A DNA stretch of 64,000 nucleotides from Thermoanaerobaculaceae bacterium (GCA_963717295.1 OY970330.1:5227717-5291716), one strand, 5' to 3'; shown: positions 5,635 through 54,985, numbered from the stretch's first letter. The notes: generated by a model not told the origin, from the letters alone. Program-made: numbers and translations.

Positions 5635-7248
5635 TTACGGGCAGGAGAACGCCGAGGTGTCCTGCACCGGCGTGTAGGCCTGACCCTTCGGGTTGAAGTA
5701 GGTACGCGTTTCGCCGGTCTGGGTGTCGGTCACCCGGAGCACGACCTCGACGTCGGTGAGGCCGCTGGCGAACACCCAGAAGTGATTGTTGACGGCGCAG
5801 CCATTCAGCACCTTCACCGACAGCTCGATGTTGTCGGGGCTGAAGAACCAGAACTGGCCGAAGTTGTTCGTCTCCGGCAGGGCGTGGCCGGGAGCCGAGC
5901 CGCTCTCGATTCCGATGAACGTACGCCAGACGGACTGCACCTTGAACCGGCTGTTGTCGAGGCACAACGCGGACGGGGTCTGGACGCAGGCGCCGGGGGC
6001 CGTGACCGGCGTCAGGTTGTTGTAGAAGATCTGCTCGCCCAGGGAACGGCCGGTGGCCTGACCCGCCGAGTTGTCGAACTGCCAGTGGATGCCGCCGAAA
6101 ATCCGGCTCTGCCCCGCCTCCAGGGCTGCCTGCGTGAAGCTGGTGTAGGAACGCTGGACGCCCGGCAGCCCGTCCGAGGTGCTGGTGAAGTTGAACAGGT
6201 CGTTGCCGAAGAACAGGCCCAGAACACGCGCCGCCGCCGCGCTGAAAACGCTATGCCCCGAGAAGTAGGAGGGGTGGTTGGGCGTCGAGAGCAGCGGCGT
6301 CCAGGTGGTGTCGGGAGCGGTGTTGGGGTTGCCGTCCAAGTCCGCCTCGCGGATGCCGGTGATGGGCCGCCAGAAGTTGTAATAGTACTTGGCCTGCCAG
6401 GCGGCGGTGGCGGCGTCGGCCTCCGCGATTCCCAGCAAGGCGAAGAGGCGGGCGTTCTGGATCAGGCTCAGATTCTGGGAGAGCGCGACGCCGCGGGCAA
6501 TGAGGAACCAGTGTCCGGGCGGGGTGGCGGTGCCGCCGCCGTCGGCCCAGAAGAGAGCGGTCTGCGTCTGGTCCGCCGTGCGGGCGGCGCTATCCGACTT
6601 ACCCACCAACTTCACCTCGTTGAAGGCGGCCTCGTAGGCCGCCGAGGCCGGCGGCGGGGGCGGCGCGGGCCGAAAGCGCGTGAGGTCGTCGACGCCCCAG
6701 GCCGTGACCGCCGGCCAGCCGGGAAGCAGCGGCTCGGCAAACCCCGGAGGCGTCTTCACCCACCACAGCGCCCCGGTCGGGAAATTGCCCGTGGCCACGT
6801 CGCCCGAGTGGTCGTTGGCGCGCAGGGCCAGAATCTGGGCGGCCACCGTTTCGCCCCAGGTGACGCCCAGGGTCTTGGCCGCGCCGGGAGGAATGGAGCT
6901 CAGCGAGGTCGTGTACTCGCCGTCGAGAAACGTCTGTTGAGCCGGGAAAAGGGTCACCAGGACTTTGTGGGCGGCGGCGGCGGCGGCGGCCTCCGGCGAA
7001 GCGCCGGACGGCGCCGTAGCCGTAACGAAGTAGGGGGTGTATCCGCCGACGATGCCGTTGACGGCGTCGAAGACCGCGACGTGGACGAGAGCCAGGGTCC
7101 GGCCTGCCTTGGGCGGCGCCGTCCTGTCCGTCCGGATGCTTCCTGCCGTGAGGTTGACCCAGTCGGTGATGACGTCAGCGCGGACGGGCCCGGCGACGCC
7201 GAGCAGGGCCGCGGCACAGAGCCCCGAAATGATGATTTTACGTAGCAT
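5635..7248 (-). CDS. secreted PAP2 / vanadium-dependent haloperoxidase-like protein with extra C-terminal beta-domain
   Basis: Signal peptide. PAP2 motifs K-x6-RP (KYYYNFWRP), PSGH (YFSGHS) and SR-x5-H-x3-D (SRIFGGIHWQFD). Extra ~120-aa C-terminal domain (RFKVQSVW...FWFF...VKVLNGC). Confidence 0.75.
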   Translation of the reverse strand: MLRKIIISGLCAAALLGVAGPVRADVITDWVNLTAGSIRTDRTAPPKAGRTLALVHVAVFDAVNGIVGGYTPYFVTATAPSGASPEAAAAAAAHKVLVTLFPAQQTFLDGEYTTSLSSIPPGAAKTLGVTWGETVAAQILALRANDHSGDVATGNFPTGALWWVKTPPGFAEPLLPGWPAVTAWGVDDLTRFRPAPPPPPASAAYEAAFNEVKLVGKSDSAARTADQTQTALFWADGGGTATPPGHWFLIARGVALSQNLSLIQNARLFALLGIAEADAATAAWQAKYYYNFWRPITGIREADLDGNPNTAPDTTWTPLLSTPNHPSYFSGHSVFSAAAARVLGLFFGNDLFNFTSTSDGLPGVQRSYTSFTQAALEAGQSRIFGGIHWQFDNSAGQATGRSLGEQIFYNNLTPVTAPGACVQTPSALCLDNSRFKVQSVWRTFIGIESGSAPGHALPETNNFGQFWFFSPDNIELSVKVLNGCAVNNHFWVFASGLTDVEVVLRVTDTQTGETRTYFNPKGQAYTPVQDTSAFSCP

Positions 7249-7395
7249 TTGATCCCTCTCTTCTAAGACTATGGGAACGAATTCCCCCTCCGAGATGCGG
7301 GGAAGGGCTAACTACTGTTGAAACGCTTCACAAGAATACAAGATGAAGCCCTGTCACACCAGAGGAGAGAGCCGGAAAGCCCGGTGGAGCGGGCT

Positions 7396-8013
7396 TCAGC
7401 CGTGAACCGTGGGGGAGACGCCCAAGCCCCGCGCGAGCTTGGCCTCGAGCTCGCGCCAGCCGAGGAAGCGCGCGGCGAGCGCCTCGGCCTCGACCTCGCG
7501 GCCGGCGAGCTTGTAGAAGAGCTCCCAGTGGCGGCGTTCCGCGGGGCCGAGATCGGCGAGGAGGCTCGCGACCTCCGGATCCTCGACGACCTCCAGGAGC
7601 CGGGTGAACCGCTCGCAGCTCCGCGCCTCGACGAGAGCGCCGAAAAGCAGGCGGTCGACCTTCGTCCAGGCATCCCGCCCGACAATCCGGTCTCTCAGGC
7701 TCTGGACCCAGGGATTCTTCCGCCGTCCCCCGAGCGGCCACCCCCGCTGCTTCAGGATCGCCACCACCCGCCGGAAGTGCTGCACCTCCTCGGCCGCCAG
7801 AGCCGCCACCCGTTCGACAAGCTCGAAATCCTGGGGGTAGTAGCTGGCGAGCGACAGGGCATAGATCGCCACTTGCTGCTCGCACACCGCGTGATCGGCA
7901 AGGAACTCCGGAAGGTTCGCCGCCGCCAGCTCCGCCCACGAGCGAGGCGTCGGATGAAGGAGGGGAAGAGCGGCGTAGACCTCTTCATAGCCGGTTGGCT
8001 CGGGAAAGTTCAT
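7396..8013 (-). CDS. miaE: tRNA-(ms2io6A)-hydroxylase MiaE (ferritin-like di-iron)
   Basis: MNFPEPTGY...FLADHAVCEQQVAIYALSLASYYP...EEVQHFRRV matches the MiaE pattern. True ATG at 8011-8013. The 381-aa ORF-track version is a spurious upstream extension. Confidence 0.7.
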   Translation of the reverse strand: MNFPEPTGYEEVYAALPLLHPTPRSWAELAAANLPEFLADHAVCEQQVAIYALSLASYYPQDFELVERVAALAAEEVQHFRRVVAILKQRGWPLGGRRKNPWVQSLRDRIVGRDAWTKVDRLLFGALVEARSCERFTRLLEVVEDPEVASLLADLGPAERRHWELFYKLAGREVEAEALAARFLGWRELEAKLARGLGVSPTVHG

Positions 8014-30465: not shown

Positions 30466-32418
30466 TTACGCCCCCCGAACCATCAAATCAGCCACCGCCT
30501 TGTTGAAGCGCACGGGGTCGGGCAGCTCGCCGCCCTCGGCGATGAGGCCGTAGCCGAAGAGGAGCTGGGCGTAGTCTTCGAGCACCGGATCGTCGGCGTT
30601 CTTCTCGAAGTGCTCGCTCATCTTGGCCAGGATGTCGTGCTTCGGGTTGAGCTCCAGGATGCGGCGCTGCTTCGGGCCGCCTCCCTTGCCCTTCTGGAGG
30701 AGCTTTTCGAGCTGCGGGCTGTAGTCGTGCTCGGCGCCCACCAGGCAGACCGGCGAGCTCGTGAGACGGCTGGTGAGGCGCACCTGCTTGACCCAGGTGT
30801 CGAGCTTCTTCTGCAAGGCCTCGAGCAGCGGCTTCAACTCCTCCTCCTTGGCCTTCAGCTCCTCCTCGGTCTGCTTCTTCTCCTCCTCGTTGCCGAGCGA
30901 GACCGTGCCCTTGCCCGCCGACTTCAGCTTCTTGCCGCCGTACTCGTTGAGCGACTGGGTGAGCAGCTCGTCCACCGTGTCCACCAGGTAGAGCACCTCG
31001 TAGCCCTTTTCCTTGAAGGCTTCGAGGTTGGGCGAATTCTCCACCTGCGAGCGCGTCTCGCCCGTCAGGTAATAGATCTCGTTCTGCCCTTCCTTCATCC
31101 GCTCGACGTACTCCTTGAGCGAGGTGAGCTTCTCGGGATCGTTCGACGACTCGAAGACCAGCAGCTCCAGCAGCTTCTCCTTGTTCTCGTAGTCCGCGCT
31201 GGTGCCCTCCTTGATGGCGCGGCCGAACTCGCCCCAGAACTTGAGGTAGGTCTCCGGCTCCTTCTCCTTCATATCGGTGAGGACGTCGAGGATCTTCTTG
31301 GTCAACCCCTTGCGGATGAGGGTGATGAAGCGGTCCTGCTGCAACATCTCGCGGGAGACGTTGAGCGCCAGGTCGGGGGAGTCGACGACGCCGCGCACGA
31401 AGCGCAGATACTGCGGGAGCAGGTCCTCGCACTTCTCCAGGATCTGGATGCGCTTGACGTAGAGCTGAAGGCCGGGCTTCGAGGCCACGTAATAGAGGTC
31501 GTACGGCGCCTGCGCCGGGATGAACAGCAGGGCCTGATACTCGATGCGTCCCTCGGCCTTGTAGGAGATGACCTTGAGCGGCTCCGTCCAGTCGTGGGCG
31601 ATGTGCTTGTAGAACTCGTTGTAGTCCTCGGGCTTCACCTCGGACTGCGGCCGGGTCCAGATCGGCTTCATCGTGTTGAGAGTCTTCTCTTCCAGCGGCA
31701 TGACGGGTTTCTCGCCCGTCTCCTTCTCCTTGGCGAGATCCTCCATCTCCGGGTCCTTCTCGGCCTTGAGGATGATCGGGTAGCTGACGAAGTCCGAGTA
31801 GCGGCGGACGATGCGGCTGATCACCCAGCGGTCGGAGAAGTCGTCGAGGCCGTTCTCCTTGTCCTCGGCCTTGAGGTAGAGGGTGACGGAGGTGCCGCGG
31901 GCGGCTTTCTCGGTCTCCTCCACGGTATAGGTGCCGTCGCCGGTGGACTCCCAGCGGGTGGCGGCGGTCTCGCCCGCGCGGCGGGTCACCAGCACGACGC
32001 GCTCGGCGGCCATGAAGGAGGAGTAGAAGCCGACGCCGAACTGGCCGATCAGCTCCGCGATCGACTGCTGCGACTCGCCCTTCTTCATGCGGTCCACCAG
32101 CTCGCGGGTGCCGGACTTCGCGATGGTGCCGATGTTGGCGATGACCTCGTCGCGGCTCATGCCGATGCCGTTGTCGTTAATGGTGAGGGTGCGCAGGTTG
32201 CGGTCCGCCTCAATGCGGATCTGAAGCTCATCTCCGCCTTCGAGCAGCTCGGGATGAGTCAGCGCCTCGAACCGCAGCCGGTCGATCGCGTCGGACGCGT
32301 TCGAGATCAGCTCGCGCAGGAAGATTTCCTTGTTCGAGTACAACGAATGGATCATCAGGTCGAGGAGCTGCCGGGTTTCGGCCTGGAACTGCAGGGTCTC
32401 GACGGTAGCGGTAGCCAT
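30466..32418 (-). CDS. htpG: molecular chaperone HtpG (Hsp90)
   Basis: 650 aa, N-terminus MATATVETLQFQAETRQLLDLMIHSLYSNKEIFLRELISNASDA matches the HATPase_c GHKL fold. Confidence 0.9.
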   Translation of the reverse strand: MATATVETLQFQAETRQLLDLMIHSLYSNKEIFLRELISNASDAIDRLRFEALTHPELLEGGDELQIRIEADRNLRTLTINDNGIGMSRDEVIANIGTIAKSGTRELVDRMKKGESQQSIAELIGQFGVGFYSSFMAAERVVLVTRRAGETAATRWESTGDGTYTVEETEKAARGTSVTLYLKAEDKENGLDDFSDRWVISRIVRRYSDFVSYPIILKAEKDPEMEDLAKEKETGEKPVMPLEEKTLNTMKPIWTRPQSEVKPEDYNEFYKHIAHDWTEPLKVISYKAEGRIEYQALLFIPAQAPYDLYYVASKPGLQLYVKRIQILEKCEDLLPQYLRFVRGVVDSPDLALNVSREMLQQDRFITLIRKGLTKKILDVLTDMKEKEPETYLKFWGEFGRAIKEGTSADYENKEKLLELLVFESSNDPEKLTSLKEYVERMKEGQNEIYYLTGETRSQVENSPNLEAFKEKGYEVLYLVDTVDELLTQSLNEYGGKKLKSAGKGTVSLGNEEEKKQTEEELKAKEEELKPLLEALQKKLDTWVKQVRLTSRLTSSPVCLVGAEHDYSPQLEKLLQKGKGGGPKQRRILELNPKHDILAKMSEHFEKNADDPVLEDYAQLLFGYGLIAEGGELPDPVRFNKAVADLMVRGA

Positions 32419-32636: not shown

Positions 32637-33140
32637 ATGGCCTGGGGACGAAAACGAGAAGGTGGCGGAGGATGCGTGGGCCTGCTGGCCCTGCTGCTGG
32701 CGGTCGTGGCTTTGGTGGTGGCCTGGGCGGCGTACAAGCGCACGGGCGGCGAGCTGGGGACAGTGTTGAAGGACGCGGGAGTCGAGAGCCGCGGCGCGGC
32801 CGGAGCCGACTCGGATCTCGCGGAATGGCGGGAGGATCTGGCCCAGGCCCGCGACCGGCTCCTGGGCCGCCGGGCCGAGGTGGCGGGGGACCGCAACCTG
32901 GATCAGGTACGCCGCGACGTGGAGCAGGTGCGGACCAGCCTGGAGCAGGCGTATCGCAAGGCCGGCGACAAGGCCGGTGCCGCGAAGGAGGAGTGGAAGG
33001 ATCTCGACGCCGATCTTCAGCGACTGGAGGGGCAACTCAAGGACGGCGGCTCCAAGGCCCTGGCCTCCCTCGACAAGGCGATCTCGAAGCTCCGCGACGC
33101 CACGAGCCCCAAGAAGGACGAGGAAGATCGCCGCCGCTGA
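32637..33140 (+). CDS. hypothetical membrane-anchored coiled-coil protein
   Basis: 167 aa, one TM helix (LLALLLAVVALVVAWAA) then charged helical region. Confidence 0.4.
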   Translation: MAWGRKREGGGGCVGLLALLLAVVALVVAWAAYKRTGGELGTVLKDAGVESRGAAGADSDLAEWREDLAQARDRLLGRRAEVAGDRNLDQVRRDVEQVRTSLEQAYRKAGDKAGAAKEEWKDLDADLQRLEGQLKDGGSKALASLDKAISKLRDATSPKKDEEDRRR

Positions 33141-33146
33141 CCTCCC

Positions 33147-34577
33147 TCAGTACATCGGTACCGAGGGATCCACCTGGAGGCTCCAGGCGTGGATTCCGCC
33201 GGCGAGGTTGATGGCGCGGGAGTAGCCCATCTGGCGCAGGAAGTTGACCGCCCGGGCCGACCGCATACCCGAGTGGCAGAGGGTCACGATGGTGGACGCC
33301 GGATCGAGCTCGCCCAGCCGGTCCTGAAGCTCGGGCAGGGGGATCAGCGTCGAGCCTTCGACGCGGCAGATCTCCCACTCCGGGGGATTGCGCACGTCGA
33401 GGACGGTCAACGGCCGCCCCTCGTCCATCCAGGCCTTGAGCTGGGGAGCCGAGATCTCGAAGGCCGCCTCCACTTCCTCGGCGTGCGGCTCGACGCCGCA
33501 GAACTGGTCGTAGTCGATCAGCCCGGTCTGTGTCGGGTGCTCGGAGCAGATGGGGCAGTTCGGGTCCTTGCGCAGCTTGAGCTCGCGGAACTTCATCTTC
33601 AGGGCGTCGAACAGCAGCAGGCGGCCGATCATTGGGTCGCCGGCGCCGACGATCAGCTTGATCACCTCGTTGGCCTGAAGCGAGCCGATGATCCCCGGCA
33701 GCACCCCGAGCACGCCGCCTTCGGCGCAGGAGGGGACGAGCCCCGGCGGCGGCGGCTCCGGGAAGAGGCAGCGGTAGCAGGGGCCGCGCGCCCCCCAGAA
33801 GATCGAGACCTGCCCCTCGAAGCGGAAGATGGAGCCATAGACGTTCGGCTTGCCCAGCAGCACGCAGGCGTCGTTGACCAGGTAGCGGGTCTGGAAGTTG
33901 TCCGTGCCGTCGACGACGATGTCGTAGTCCCGGAACAGCTCCAGGGCGTTCGAGGAGTCGAGGCGCAGCTCGTGGGGGACGATCTTGATGTGGGGGTTGA
34001 GGTCGCGCAGCCGGTCCGTCGCGGCCTGGATCTTCGGCCGGCCCACGGACGAGCGGCCGAAGAGCACCTGGCGGTGGAGATTGCTCTCGTCGACGACGTC
34101 GAAGTCCACCATGCCGAGCGTGCCCACGCCCGCCGCGGCCAGGTAGAGGCCGAGCGGCGAGCCGAGGCCGCCGGCGCCGACCGTCAGCACCTTCGCCGCC
34201 TTGAGCTTGCGCTGCCCGGCGGTGCCCACCTCGGGCATGATGAGGTGCCGGCTGTAGTGGCGGATCTCGGCCGGCGAAAGCTCGGGCAACTCGGCACCTC
34301 CGGCGCCCCCCGCGATCGACGGGATGATCGACAGCGTGTCGCCCGCGGCGATCGGCGTCGCCTCCTTCTGGAGGTGGCGCACGTCCTCGTCGTTGAGGAA
34401 GAGGTTGACGAAGCTGCGTAGCGCGCCTTCGTCGGTGTACAGGTGGCGCTGGAGCGCCGGATGCCGCCGGGTGAGGTCCTGCATCGCCTCGCCGACCGTG
34501 GCGCCCTCGACGACGACGTCGCTCTGCTCGCCGCTGAACCGGCGCAGGGGGGTGGGAATCTGAATCGTGACGCTCAA
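33147..34577 (-). CDS. in-frame fusion of a CysO/ThiS/MoaD-like sulfur-carrier protein (ending ...IIPSIAGG) to MoeZ-type E1 adenylyltransferase with C-terminal rhodanese domain
   Basis: TTG start 34575-34577 with AAGGAGG 7 nt upstream. Carrier domain (residues 1-93) ends in GG. It continues with no stop codon as AGGAELPELSPAEIRHYSRHLIMPEVG...VLTVGAGGLGSP (ThiF/MoeB fold) ...CHSGMRS (rhodanese). The 898-aa ORF-track entry is this gene plus an out-of-frame upstream extension. Confidence 0.75.
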   Translation of the reverse strand: MSVTIQIPTPLRRFSGEQSDVVVEGATVGEAMQDLTRRHPALQRHLYTDEGALRSFVNLFLNDEDVRHLQKEATPIAAGDTLSIIPSIAGGAGGAELPELSPAEIRHYSRHLIMPEVGTAGQRKLKAAKVLTVGAGGLGSPLGLYLAAAGVGTLGMVDFDVVDESNLHRQVLFGRSSVGRPKIQAATDRLRDLNPHIKIVPHELRLDSSNALELFRDYDIVVDGTDNFQTRYLVNDACVLLGKPNVYGSIFRFEGQVSIFWGARGPCYRCLFPEPPPPGLVPSCAEGGVLGVLPGIIGSLQANEVIKLIVGAGDPMIGRLLLFDALKMKFRELKLRKDPNCPICSEHPTQTGLIDYDQFCGVEPHAEEVEAAFEISAPQLKAWMDEGRPLTVLDVRNPPEWEICRVEGSTLIPLPELQDRLGELDPASTIVTLCHSGMRSARAVNFLRQMGYSRAINLAGGIHAWSLQVDPSVPMY

Positions 34578-35038
34578 CGTGCCGCCTCCTTCTGGAAACC
34601 GGCAAGAGCGCCGGAAACGATCTCCTCTTCCTCGAACCGCTCGCGGTCGTCGGAGAGGCGCCAGCTCCGGGTGTCCGCCACCCTGCCGCCCTCCACGGAA
34701 ACGATGACGTAGGACAACCCGGGCCAGGCGTGCTCGCGGTCGAACTCGCTCGGCCGCGCCGGATGGTCCGGATGGGAATGGTAGTAGCCCACGATATCCA
34801 GGCCTTGGGCGCGCGCCTCCTTGCTGGCGGCGAGCACGGTCTCGGGGCTGATCAGGTACCGGTTGTGCCGGCTCTCCTGCCGCTCGTTGCTCACCGGCAG
34901 GCTGCGCTCGACGGCGGTCACCCCTGTCGCGGCAACGAAACGGCCGATCAGGAAGCCGCAGCACTCTTCGGGGTAGCTGGCGGCCGCATGCTCCGTGGCC
35001 GCCTGCAAGTGGCTGGGCGTGATCTCCAGGCGAAACAT
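34574..35038 (-). CDS. mec: JAMM/MPN+ metalloprotease, Mec+-like
   Basis: 154 aa, EECCGFLIG...HSHPDHPARPSEFD (JAMM motif). TGA overlaps the TTG of the downstream carrier-E1 fusion (TTGA). Confidence 0.75.
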   Translation of the reverse strand: MFRLEITPSHLQAATEHAAASYPEECCGFLIGRFVAATGVTAVERSLPVSNERQESRHNRYLISPETVLAASKEARAQGLDIVGYYHSHPDHPARPSEFDREHAWPGLSYVIVSVEGGRVADTRSWRLSDDRERFEEEEIVSGALAGFQKEAAR

Positions 35039-35041
35039 GGT

Positions 35042-35995
35042 CTAGCTCTCCTCCCAGAACCGGTCGGACAGGTACTTGTCCGCTCCGTCGCACAGGACGG
35101 TAACCAGCGTGCCCTGCTGCAAATTCGTGGCGACCTCCAGGGCCGCCGCGACGTTGGCGCCCGACGAGATGCCCACCAGCAGGCCCGTCTCCCGCGCCAG
35201 GCGCTTCACCATGGCGTAGGCCCTCTCCGTCGGCATCTCGAGAGTCTGGTCCGCCAGCGCCGGATCGTAGATCGGCGGCACGATGGCTGTCGCCATGTGC
35301 TTCATCCCTTCGAGGCCGTGGAAGGGCGAGTCGGGCTCCATGGAGATCAGGCGCACCGCCGGGTTCTGCTCCTTCAAGAAGCGGCCCACACCCATGAAGG
35401 TGCCGCTGGTGCCCAGGCCGGTGACGAAGTGGGTGATCTGCCCTGCCGTCTGCTCCCAGATCTCCGGGCCGGTGGTGCGGTAGTGGGCGCGCCAGTTCTC
35501 CGGGTTCGAATACTGGTCGAGGTAGGCCCAGCGCTCGGGCTCCTCGGCCACCAGCCGGCGGGCTTCGAGGATCGCGCCGTCGCTGCCGGAAAGCGGATCG
35601 GTGATCCGCAGCTCGGCGCCGTAGGCCTTGAGGATGCGCTTGCGCTCGGGGCTCGCGCTCTCCGGCAGCGCCAGGGTCACCGGAATGCCCAGCGCCGCGC
35701 CGATCATGGCGTAGGCGATCCCCGTGTTGCCCGAGGTCGCGTCGAGTAGCCGCCGGCCGTTCGTGAACAGCCCGCGGCGCAACGCGTCCATGACCATCGA
35801 GAGCGCCGGCCGGTCCTTCACCGACCCTCCGGGGTTGGCCCACTCCGCCTTGGCGTAGAGCCGCACGCCCGTCCTGCCCGTGAGCTCCGAGAGGTCGATG
35901 AGCGGCGTGTTGCCAATCAGCTCGAGGAGAGGAACGGGCCGCCGCCGGTCCTGGACAGGAGCCAGATGTTCGAGGGAGAGGGCGACCGTCCGCAT
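35042..35995 (-). CDS. cysM: cysteine synthase (CysM/CysK family, PLP-dependent)
   Basis: 317 aa, ...EWANPGGSVKDRPA...TSGNTGIAYA... matches the PLP-dependent cysteine synthase fold. Directly upstream of mec. Confidence 0.85.
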   Translation of the reverse strand: MRTVALSLEHLAPVQDRRRPVPLLELIGNTPLIDLSELTGRTGVRLYAKAEWANPGGSVKDRPALSMVMDALRRGLFTNGRRLLDATSGNTGIAYAMIGAALGIPVTLALPESASPERKRILKAYGAELRITDPLSGSDGAILEARRLVAEEPERWAYLDQYSNPENWRAHYRTTGPEIWEQTAGQITHFVTGLGTSGTFMGVGRFLKEQNPAVRLISMEPDSPFHGLEGMKHMATAIVPPIYDPALADQTLEMPTERAYAMVKRLARETGLLVGISSGANVAAALEVATNLQQGTLVTVLCDGADKYLSDRFWEES

Positions 35996-36105
35996 GGCCG
36001 AATGAACGTAGCAGACGGGGGACGAGGTGTAAAGGATAGTAAGTCAGTCACGAATCCTTGCCGGACCCTGTCCGGGATATCCTTGCAGGAAGGGGGAAGA
36101 TCCAT

Positions 36106-36751
36106 GAACGACACTCCGCACACCGGCGACGACCGGGTTCCGCCGGGCCAGTACGTCACCGACAAGTGGCCGGTCCTCACCTATGGCCGCACACCTCAGG
36201 TGGAACGGGAGAAATGGACCTTCCGCGTCTTCGGCCTGGTGGACGCGGAGACGACCCTCTCCTGGAAGGATCTCCAGGCCCTGCCGCGCGCCCGCGTCAC
36301 GGCCGACTTTCACTGCGTGACCCGCTTCTCGACGCTGGACAACGGCTGGGAAGGCTTCTCCACCCGCGATCTCCTGAGCCGCGTCCGGGTCCACCCCGAG
36401 GCCTCGCACGTGATGGTTCACTGCTACGGCGGCTACACCACCAACCTTCCCCTGGAGGATTTCCTCTCCGAGCACGCGCTCTTCGCCGACACCCACAACG
36501 GCAAGCCGCTCCTTCTGGACCACGGCGGACCCCTGCGGCTGGTAGTGCCTCACCTCTACGCCTGGAAGAGCGCCAAGTGGGCGAACGGCGTCGAGCTTCT
36601 GTCGGAGGACCAGCGGGGCTTCTGGGAGGAGAACGGCTACCACACCTACGGCGATCCCTGGCTGGAAGAGCGCTTCAGCTCCCAGGAGACCACCCAGGCC
36701 TACCAGGTGCGCCGGCGGGCGAAGGAGCTGGGGATCGTGCCGGAGGAGTAG
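36106..36751 (+). CDS. sulfite-oxidase-family molybdopterin oxidoreductase (small YedY/YuiH-like)
   Basis: MNDTPHTGDDRVPPGQYVTDKWPVLTYG...FHCVTRFS...HLYAWKSAKW. True ATG at 36106. The ORF-track start at 35966 is an extension. Confidence 0.7.
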
Positions 36752-37282: not shown

Positions 37283-41599
<4,317 letters not shown>

Positions 41600-43051: not shown

Positions 43052-43146
<95 letters not shown>

Positions 43147-54739: not shown

Positions 54740-54756
54740 AGGCTCGAGTGGAAAGG

Positions 54757-54985
54757 CCCGAAGGGCCGACAGCATGTAGCCTGGGGCTAGCGCTTTTTGC
54801 CAGCCCCAGGTAGACGGCCCCAAAAACATCCGAAGCCCCGAAGGGGTGGCGGCAGTTTGCTTCAAACGATGGGCTGCCGTCGCCCCTATCGGGGCTATGG
54901 GAAATGTGGGGGGCGTGGGTTCCTGGGGCTGGCAAAAAAGCGCCAGCCCCAGGCTACATGCCGCTGCCCCTTCGGGGCAAACCTG
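54757..54985. repeat. hairpin-dense MITE-like element: ~45-bp inverted repeats each containing CCTGGGGCTrGC-loop-GCCAGCCCCAGG, plus several cgaa/ttcg tetraloop hairpins
   Basis: ...gacagcatgtagcctggggctagcgctttttgccagccccagg... versus ...cctggggctggcaaaaaagcgccagccccaggctacatgccgctg.... Also ggcccgaagggcc, ccccgaagggg and gccccttcggggc. Fills the gap between convergent brnA and the carbamoyltransferase gene. Confidence 0.5.

Follow-up and report, generated by a model that had tools for sequence, protein, structure and literature searches.

The window analysed here, a 64-kb stretch of DNA from a Thermoanaerobaculaceae bacterium (GCA_963717295.1, OY970330.1:5227717-5291716), carries on its minus strand a tight operon of three genes that follow each other head to tail, as delineated by open reading frame (ORF) calling and translation: cysM, a gene for a JAMM metalloprotease resembling Mec+, and cysO::moeZ, a single ORF in which a CysO-like sulfur carrier runs into its own MoeZ-type activating enzyme (E1) and rhodanese domain (Table 1). 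The ORFs, their Pfam matches and their translations bear out the operon identity given in the initial annotation of this DNA. The genes are closely coupled, with a gap of 3 nucleotides (nt) between the cysM stop codon and the JAMM ATG, and with the JAMM TGA and the TTG start of the fusion sharing the tetranucleotide TTGA (34574-34577), an overlap that had been recognized from the start. Translation of the fusion ORF proceeds from ...TLSIIPSIAGG directly into AGGAELPELSPAEIRHYSRHL... with zero stop codons and zero frame changes; with the linker set off, the junction reads ...TLSIIPSIAGG-AGGAE-LPELSPAEIRHYSRHL...

Table 1. Position of the operon features in the window, and of three related polyproteins in their own loci (aa, amino acids).
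Feature	Position	Strand	Remarks
cysM	35042..35995	-	ATG 35995, stop 35042-35044; pyridoxal phosphate (PLP)-dependent cysteine synthase, B-type, 317 aa
JAMM/MPN+ metalloprotease gene, Mec+-like	34574..35038	-	154 aa; ATG 35038, TGA 34576-34574
cysO::moeZ fusion ORF	33147..34577	-	476 codons + stop; TTG start 34577-34575; stop 33149-33147
Shine-Dalgarno AGGAGG	34585..34590	-	7 nt 5' of fusion TTG; read from sequence
CysO-like beta-grasp sulfur-carrier domain, aa 1-91, end ...PSIAGG	34305..34577	-	Pfam ThiS, CysO alignment
Gly90-Gly91 codons GGG GGC	34305..34310	-	predicted cleavage site after G91; putative future thiocarboxylate C-terminus
Variable linker AGGAE, aa 92-96	34290..34304	-	alignment of homologues
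GGAGGT-N6-TTG candidate internal start	34287..34301	-	GGAGGT 34296-34301, TTG 34287-34289; probably incidental
ThiF/MoeB-type adenylation (E1) domain, aa 108-342	33552..34256	-	Pfam ThiF
C-terminal rhodanese domain, aa 377-466	33180..33449	-	Pfam Rhodanese; active-site loop CHSGMRS
P0142, JAB::ThiS::Rhodanese::ThiF	L082:4001-5905		634 aa; beside MacB/ABC genes, no CysM nearby
P0146, JAB::ThiS-like::ThiF::Rhodanese	L083:3501-5360		619 aa; PALP/CysM gene directly after
P0129, ThiS::Rhodanese::ThiF	L084:3501-4961		overlapping JAB gene upstream, PALP gene downstream

The carrier domain is complete. Its Pfam ThiS match (aa 5-91) covers profile positions 1-76 of 76 and so extends to the last position, and the domain aligns end to end with Mycobacterium tuberculosis CysO (3dwg_C; query 1-91, chain 1-93, E=4.8e-15), which places Gly-Gly exactly where CysO ends. 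Residues P86, S87, I88, A89, G90 and G91 are invariant in an alignment of 73 sequences. The adenylation domain that follows matches Pfam ThiF with E=3e-83, and its translation shows the E1 motifs GAGGLGS, CYRC and CPIC. MoeZ (NF005902) is the top NCBIfam match to the fusion, but at 519 bits it falls short of its cut-off (647), and MoeB models reach similar scores; a Foldseek comparison of the predicted E1 structure retrieved MoeB (1jw9_B, template-modelling score 0.92) and also Uba4 (6yub). The C-terminal rhodanese domain (Pfam E=7.3e-18) retains C434, G437 and R439, which are invariant across the alignment.

The other two proteins are equally recognizable. The JAMM protein matches Pfam Prok-JAB (E=1.3e-27) and has both catalytic motifs intact in its translation, E(24)-ECCG and HSHPDHPARPSEFD (HxHx7Sx2D); its nearest solved structure is 2kcq, annotated as a member of the Mov34/MPN/PAD-1 family (E=2.5e-31), and its best NCBIfam name is desampylase-like JAMM. 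In Pfam terms, no protease-like domain other than this JAB domain is present in the operon proteins. CysM matches PALP (E=2.7e-74), narrowly misses the NCBIfam cysM model TIGR01138 (372 bits, cut-off 394) and passes the cysKM subfamily model (346 bits, cut-off 344). Its nearest solved structures are the Escherichia coli and Salmonella CysM proteins (238 bits), with M. tuberculosis CysM at 191 bits.

We assign the fusion start to TTG 34577 on the grounds that homologues begin at the same position with TTG, GTG or ATG. The AGGAGG-N7-TTG arrangement recurs in a close relative (locus L001). An 898-aa ORF on the same strand (33147-35843), in which the frame of the fusion stays open through the JAMM and cysM genes, was rejected as a high-G+C artefact. 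Neither a sigma-70-like promoter nor an intrinsic terminator was found in 32900-36400, and no Rfam element lies within or beside the operon.

Conservation of the fusion and its junction

To place the fusion among its relatives, a search of 5.8 billion proteins was used to take the best 120 homologues (67-97% identity), and 80 loci were obtained from a genomic scan in which each GTDB species was represented by one genome; junction statistics refer to 191 unique fused homologues and conservation values to the 73-sequence alignment. The ThiS-ThiF-Rhodanese architecture is present in 119 of the 120 top protein matches, and carrier and MoeZ are fused in about 70 of the 78 genomic loci that have both. 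Across the 80-locus scan the fusion is distributed over the Acidobacteriota, in Thermoanaerobaculia, Vicinamibacterales, Pyrinomonadaceae/Blastocatellia and Bryobacterales, together with two metagenome-assembled genomes (MAGs) of Gemmatimonadota, the nearest genomic locus being that of a Thermoanaerobaculia MAG (94%). The claim that carrier and E1 are joined in frame, without a stop codon or a frame change, is thus upheld both by the translation and by fused relatives, and the search for ThiS-ThiF/MoeZ fusions with a JAMM neighbour that had been proposed along with it returned many.

The junction combines strict conservation with extreme variability. All 191 fused homologues keep the sequence P-S/A-I/V-A-G-G, and Gly-Gly is invariant in these and in 8 of 8 split variants described below. 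The linker that follows measures 2-36 residues and has 28 distinct lengths, every one of them in frame; it occupies 42 alignment columns with 64% gaps and a mean majority-residue fraction of 0.14 (0.79 and 0.90 in the flanking carrier and E1 domains, respectively), and gives way to a conserved MoeZ N-terminus, LP(E/D/Q)L-x3-EIR-x-YSRHLI. The carrier domain, being this well conserved, is not decaying. The fusion is shared by the closest relatives, P0001-P0003 and L002 (94-97% identical), whose linkers differ in both sequence and length, as illustrated by GG-AGGAE in the window, GG-AGGTEATAE in P0001 and GG-AGGAGGTE in L002. These comparisons mark the linker as an indel hot-spot whose frame is maintained by selection and indicate that the fusion is genuine and under selection.

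Whole AGG or IAGG units vary at the junction, which reads IAGG-AGG-A in the window, IAGG-AGG-AGG-T in L002 and IAGG-IAGG in L032 and P0026. The pattern suggests slippage during replication of the GC-rich Gly codons, with tandem candidate cleavage motifs as a result.

Carrier and MoeZ are encoded by separate genes in eight loci. A nearest-neighbour analysis places these split forms among fused relatives and counts at least four independent splitting events. The closest case is L001, whose MoeZ is 97-98% identical to that of the window and whose linker differs from it by a 17-nt indel: its carrier is a protein of 96 aa ending in ...IAGGAGSAL, and the GTG start of MoeZ overlaps the stop codon. 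All eight split carriers keep 1-8 residues past Gly-Gly (AGSAL, MY, TA, NI, V, ARK, ARDRV and KEAGVVKA), so that in the whole family, among fused and split members alike, a carrier ending at Gly-Gly is never encoded, and C-terminal processing would therefore be obligatory throughout. Compared in this way, carrier extensions past Gly-Gly form a continuum, with the fusion at its long end. Since the splits arose repeatedly among fused relatives, separate CysO and MoeZ proteins appear to be interchangeable with the fusion, which is to be expected if the fusion is cut and would be hard to explain if it worked intact. According to the initial annotation, separate genes would be indicated if a close relative had a stop codon following IAGG. 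L001 does contain one, five codons past Gly-Gly, and the fusion claim nevertheless stands, because the L001 carrier would still need to be trimmed and the fusion is present in the other closest relatives.

Gene order is similarly constant. Mapping of the 80 loci by tblastn with the four protein parts of the window recovered the order CysM - JAMM - CysO::MoeZ in about 72, and JAMM directly upstream of the fusion in 75, with a median gap of 3 nt; in 48 of these 75 the two genes overlap or lie within 20 nt of each other. Two Thermoanaerobaculia loci, L013 (5525-7161) and L014 (3514-5144), have JAMM-MoeZ pairs devoid of a carrier domain and of CysM. In these pairs the JAMM stop overlaps the MoeZ ATG, the MoeZ protein is about 82% identical to that of the window, and the arrangement resembles operon type 4b of Iyer et al. 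2006 (PMC1779556).

The same parts have been joined in other ways. When representatives of 50%-identity clusters were searched exhaustively, about 16 of the top 150 were fused, at identities down to 41%. Three of these, P0142, P0146 and P0129, differ from the window in domain order (Table 1), which implies independent fusion events; in each, the xGG at the carrier end precedes Met or a small residue. The presence of the protease within the same polypeptide strengthens the functional link between JAB, carrier and E1, and these independent polyproteins support the same functional trio.

Proposed release of the carrier after Gly-Gly

In 181 of the 191 fusions (95%) a small residue (A, S, V, T, C or G) comes directly after Gly-Gly, whereas small residues make up 50% of the rest of the linker. 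Such a preference would fit a single JAMM active site that serves both the precursor and the Cys-bearing adduct CysO-Cys. An AlphaFold2 model computed from the alignment of 73 sequences has a mean predicted local distance difference test (pLDDT) score of 87.8 with all three domains confident, and falls below 50 precisely at residues 89-94; the predicted template-modelling score of 0.63 leaves the domain arrangement uncertain. The Gly-Gly junction is thus predicted by the model to be exposed and flexible. Processing at Gly-Gly, as proposed earlier, is strongly supported by comparison, because the AGG junction is invariant, the linker is hypervariable yet in frame, a JAMM gene lies directly upstream in most loci, split variants arose independently and all have tails, and a small residue follows Gly-Gly in most fusions. 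On these grounds cleavage after Gly-Gly by the JAMM protein would be the best explanation of the fusion and is very probably needed.

We consider it likely that the locus is a CysO-type operon for cysteine synthesis via a protein thiocarboxylate, in which the carrier is made as a precursor fused N-terminally to its own E1 and is matured by the JAMM protein. The anatomy of the operon, its conservation and the coupling of its genes are observed directly; cleavage and the later steps are modelled on the M. tuberculosis pathway and on JAMM precedents. The 3-nt gap and the TTGA overlap show cysM, the JAMM gene and cysO::moeZ to be coupled in translation. The JAMM protein would then hydrolyse the bond after Gly91 in the flexible junction, yielding CysO(1-91), its Gly-Gly carboxylate now free, along with MoeZ bearing a short, dispensable N-terminal remnant. 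MoeZ would adenylate the CysO C-terminus, which the rhodanese persulfide would convert to a thiocarboxylate, as in M. tuberculosis. CysM would add this thiocarboxylate to the aminoacrylate formed from O-phosphoserine or O-acetylserine to give, after an S-to-N shift, CysO-Gly-Gly-Cys, and the same JAMM protein would cut past Gly-Gly once more, freeing cysteine and recycling CysO. If this reading holds, the fusion guarantees 1:1 synthesis of carrier and E1.

Several alternatives were weighed against JAMM-dependent maturation. That the fusion is a sequencing or assembly artefact, two genes having been joined by the loss of a stop or by an indel within the G6 run, has next to no probability: the run does fall on the Gly-Gly codons, and L001 has separate genes despite its closeness, but the 191 fused homologues derive from independent assemblies with differing codons and linker lengths and are all in frame, and L001 is distinguished from the window by a 17-nt indel and not by a homopolymer slip. 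Because the relatives at 94-97% identity differ in their linkers yet stay in frame, the G6 run is irrelevant, and a sequencing error at this position is ruled out. MoeZ could also be produced mainly by internal initiation in the linker, the full-length protein being a minor product or a source of carrier only. The GGAGGT-N6-TTG motif to which the initial annotation had drawn attention is indeed present in the window, and the MoeZ genes of split relatives start in the equivalent region, but the motif is not conserved: of the 72 linkers from fused loci, 6 pair an in-frame ATG, GTG or TTG with a Shine-Dalgarno-like motif and 26 contain none of the three start codons, and segments of matched length taken as controls from within the E1 domain show such a pairing more often (51 of 288). 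These numbers rule out internal initiation statistically as a conserved mechanism. The motif in the window is probably incidental, being accounted for by Gly codons followed by a conserved Leu codon, and the carrier would need cleavage all the same; we regard this explanation as very unlikely.

The fusion might instead remain intact, its beta-grasp domain acting as a structural or regulatory module of the E1 while the carrier is encoded elsewhere, a scheme to which we give slightly less credence still. Its precedent is the N-terminal ubiquitin-like (Ubl)-ThiF fusions that, according to Iyer et al. 2006, co-occur with a separate ThiS and were assigned another role (PMC1779556), and three loci (L059, L077 and L080) have a second ThiS-like match about 4 kb away. 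The Ubl of that Campylobacter type is, however, described in the same paper as distinct from ThiS, whereas the domain discussed here aligns end to end with CysO, has an invariant terminal AGG and is followed by a linker as hypervariable as expected of a discarded spacer, and repeated fission has yielded free carrier genes with the same Gly-Gly. Nor was another carrier detected: tblastn locus mapping found none in the operon, and a family-specific hidden Markov model (HMM), a search that a divergent ThiS or MoaD would escape, found no second CysO-like ORF in the window. Alternatively, cleavage after Gly-Gly could be carried out by another protease, either a housekeeping peptidase or the fusion itself autocatalytically, with the JAMM protein only freeing cysteine from CysO-Cys, as Mec+ does. 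This would accommodate the three loci that have the fusion and no JAMM gene within 6 kb (L016, L018 and L021), and the excerpted abstract of the paper on the M. tuberculosis MoaD-MoaE fusion MoaX names no protease (PMC4326299). Against it, most loci have the JAMM gene next to the fusion gene and often overlapping it, JAB is the only protease-like domain that Pfam finds in the operon, polyproteins containing a JAB domain exist, and JAMM proteins have been shown or proposed to cut past the Gly-Gly of carriers elsewhere (PMC8832034, PMC5925218). We therefore consider the involvement of another protease unlikely.

Some observations weigh against maturation of the carrier by the adjacent JAMM protein, or against the pathway to which we assign it. 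The support for cleavage at Gly-Gly is comparative throughout. The sequences are phylogenetically related, so that counts such as 181/191 are of non-independent events. The L016, L018 and L021 loci, all of Vicinamibacterales, carry the fusion amid genes for amino-acid biosynthesis, with neither JAMM nor CysM within 6 kb, and in these organisms the protease would have to be encoded elsewhere or another protease would act; unless a JAMM is encoded elsewhere, they are a potential counter-example to cutting by an adjacent one. The MoeZ portion scores under the NCBIfam equivalog cut-off (519 versus 647 bits). Finally, CysM is nearer to the E. coli enzyme than to the O-phosphoserine-specific CysM of M. 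tuberculosis, which makes the acceptor chemistry uncertain.

Surroundings of the operon

Divergent from cysM, an ORF at 35966-36751 (+) encodes a molybdopterin-binding oxidoreductase (Pfam Oxidored_molyb, E=3.5e-41). Its listed start overlaps the 5' end of cysM, and the true start is probably located more downstream; L001 has this neighbour too. A molybdenum cofactor (Moco) enzyme beside a moeZ gene is worth recording because MoeZR of M. tuberculosis serves both Moco and cysteine synthesis (PMC3227635).

Downstream of the operon, a 167-aa ORF with no Pfam match (32637-33140, +) converges on the fusion gene, the two stop codons being 6 nt apart, and is followed by a gene for HtpG, of the Hsp90 family (30466-32418, -). 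Upstream lies a 1438-aa ORF (37283-41599, +) whose translation appears to hold internal repeats. The window also contains a 90-nt tRNA (43057-43146, -) and an Acido-Lenti-1 small RNA (54754-54810, -; 43.2 bits, gathering score 37), which is in keeping with an origin of this DNA in the Acidobacteriota. Among the relatives, the L016 fusion (at about 6001-7449) has IlvA-, PheA- and IlvD-like genes as neighbours.

Relation to known carrier systems

The cysteine pathway of M. tuberculosis, built from CysO, CysM, Mec+ and MoeZ(R), was reportedly described by Burns et al. in 2005, and its moeZ gene is located elsewhere in the genome. In this pathway, Mec+ is the JAMM protein that hydrolyses CysO-Gly-Gly-Cys (PMC3227635). 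The two systems share a beta-grasp carrier with Gly-Gly, a PLP-dependent cysteine synthase, a JAMM protein whose gene adjoins that of the carrier, and an E1-rhodanese protein. They differ in that M. tuberculosis CysO is a free-standing protein of 93 aa that ends at Gly-Gly, as judged from the chain length of 3dwg_C, whereas the carrier of the window lacks a stop after G91, is the N-terminal domain of MoeZ and would need proteolytic maturation.

A sulfur-carrier precursor matured by a JAMM protein is known from the Wolinella methionine pathway (HcyS/HcyD). It has also been proposed that QbsD trims QbsE in thioquinolobactin synthesis and that CxnF trims CxnE in chuangxinmycin synthesis, where the residues past Gly-Gly (CF in QbsE, a decapeptide in CxnE) are removed by the clustered JAMM before adenylation by the E1 (PMC5925218). 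Like these, the window and its relatives have residues past Gly-Gly, 385 of them in the window, and a JAMM gene in the cluster, except in L016, L018 and L021; the split relatives with their tails of 1-8 aa are exactly of the QbsE/CxnE type. In contrast to QbsE and CxnE, however, the extension in the window is a whole E1-rhodanese of 385 residues, so that the leaving group would be a functional protein, and the product of the pathway would be cysteine and not a siderophore or an antibiotic.

Larger fusions are cut by JAMM proteins as well: DR0402 cleaves the linear MoaD-MoaE fusion DR2607 of Deinococcus radiodurans, and HvJAMM1 cleaves linear fusions (PMC8832034), while the title of the M. tuberculosis MoaX paper states that cleavage is necessary for activity (PMC4326299). 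MoaD-MoaE and ThiS-ThiG fusions resemble the present one in joining a carrier of the ThiS/MoaD type via Gly-Gly to a partner from its pathway. That partner is, however, a downstream synthase subunit and not the upstream activating E1, and the MoaD-MoaE product is Moco and not cysteine.

A comparable logic governs ubiquitin precursors, including polyubiquitin, ubiquitin-ribosomal protein fusions and the Caldiarchaeum CsUb precursor, which is processed by the JAMM protein CsRpn11 (PMC6043591). In each an N-terminal beta-grasp modifier is released past Gly-Gly by a dedicated peptidase. The modifier in the window differs from these in being a sulfur carrier and not a protein tag, and in having its own E1 as partner. 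We know of no eukaryotic equivalent of a modifier fused to its own E1.

The excerpted text of Iyer, Burroughs and Aravind 2006 (PMC1779556) already lists, as operon class 4c, the combination of ThiS/MoaD, E1-rhodanese, JAB and cysteine synthase, with the acidobacterium Solibacter usitatus among its members, and predicts that JAB would cleave fused ThiS/MoaD proteins to free their C-termini. The novelty implied by the initial annotation is reduced accordingly: the fusion extends an already known principle and is not a new one. The table comment for this class in that excerpt gives an E1-rhodanese fusion only and no carrier-E1 fusion, and its text does not describe phylum-wide conservation, obligatory tails or repeated fission. 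It does describe the Campylobacter-type Ubl-ThiF proteins, which likewise place a beta-grasp domain N-terminal to an adenylating enzyme of the ThiF family; that Ubl is, however, described as distinct from ThiS, occurs together with a separate ThiS and is not believed to be the carrier, whereas the domain in the window is CysO-like, has an invariant Gly-Gly and has no second carrier beside it in the operon or, by the family-specific HMM, in the window. A CysO-MoeZ fusion was not found described in the literature searched, and a Foldseek search of the PDB returned MoeB, ThiF, Uba4 and other E1 chains, with no solved single-chain carrier-E1 structure. Within that literature, what appears to be new is the carrier's own E1 as the fusion partner, the fused form as the dominant state across a phylum and the extension past Gly-Gly in all relatives.

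These findings have a practical side, as the fusion genes are at present annotated simply as 'MoeB' or as 'ubiquitin-like small modifier protein 1': if the proposed maturation is correct, it would provide a simple annotation rule for hundreds of genes in Acidobacteriota and Gemmatimonadota. The model is directly testable. It would also account for the JAB genes of sulfur-carrier operons, whose presence in related siderophore-type operons struck Iyer et al. 2006 as mysterious (PMC1779556).

More broadly, and tentatively, we put forward the possibility that one JAMM protein performs two jobs at the same Gly-Gly, maturing the carrier::E1 precursor and freeing cysteine from CysO-Gly-Gly-Cys, and that carrier-E1 and even protease-carrier-E1 polyproteins are recurrent and independently evolved, which would make the logic of ubiquitin precursors, translated fused and cut after Gly-Gly, a widespread ancestral feature of sulfur carriers. 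Until it is cleaved, the E1 might be inactive or pre-loaded in cis, amounting to a zymogen-like control of cysteine synthesis. If the JAMM protein does cut the polyprotein, proteases of the Mec+ type would act on two substrates, one being the precursor and the other the CysO-Cys adduct, and the operon would offer a clean bacterial counterpart of ubiquitin precursor processing.

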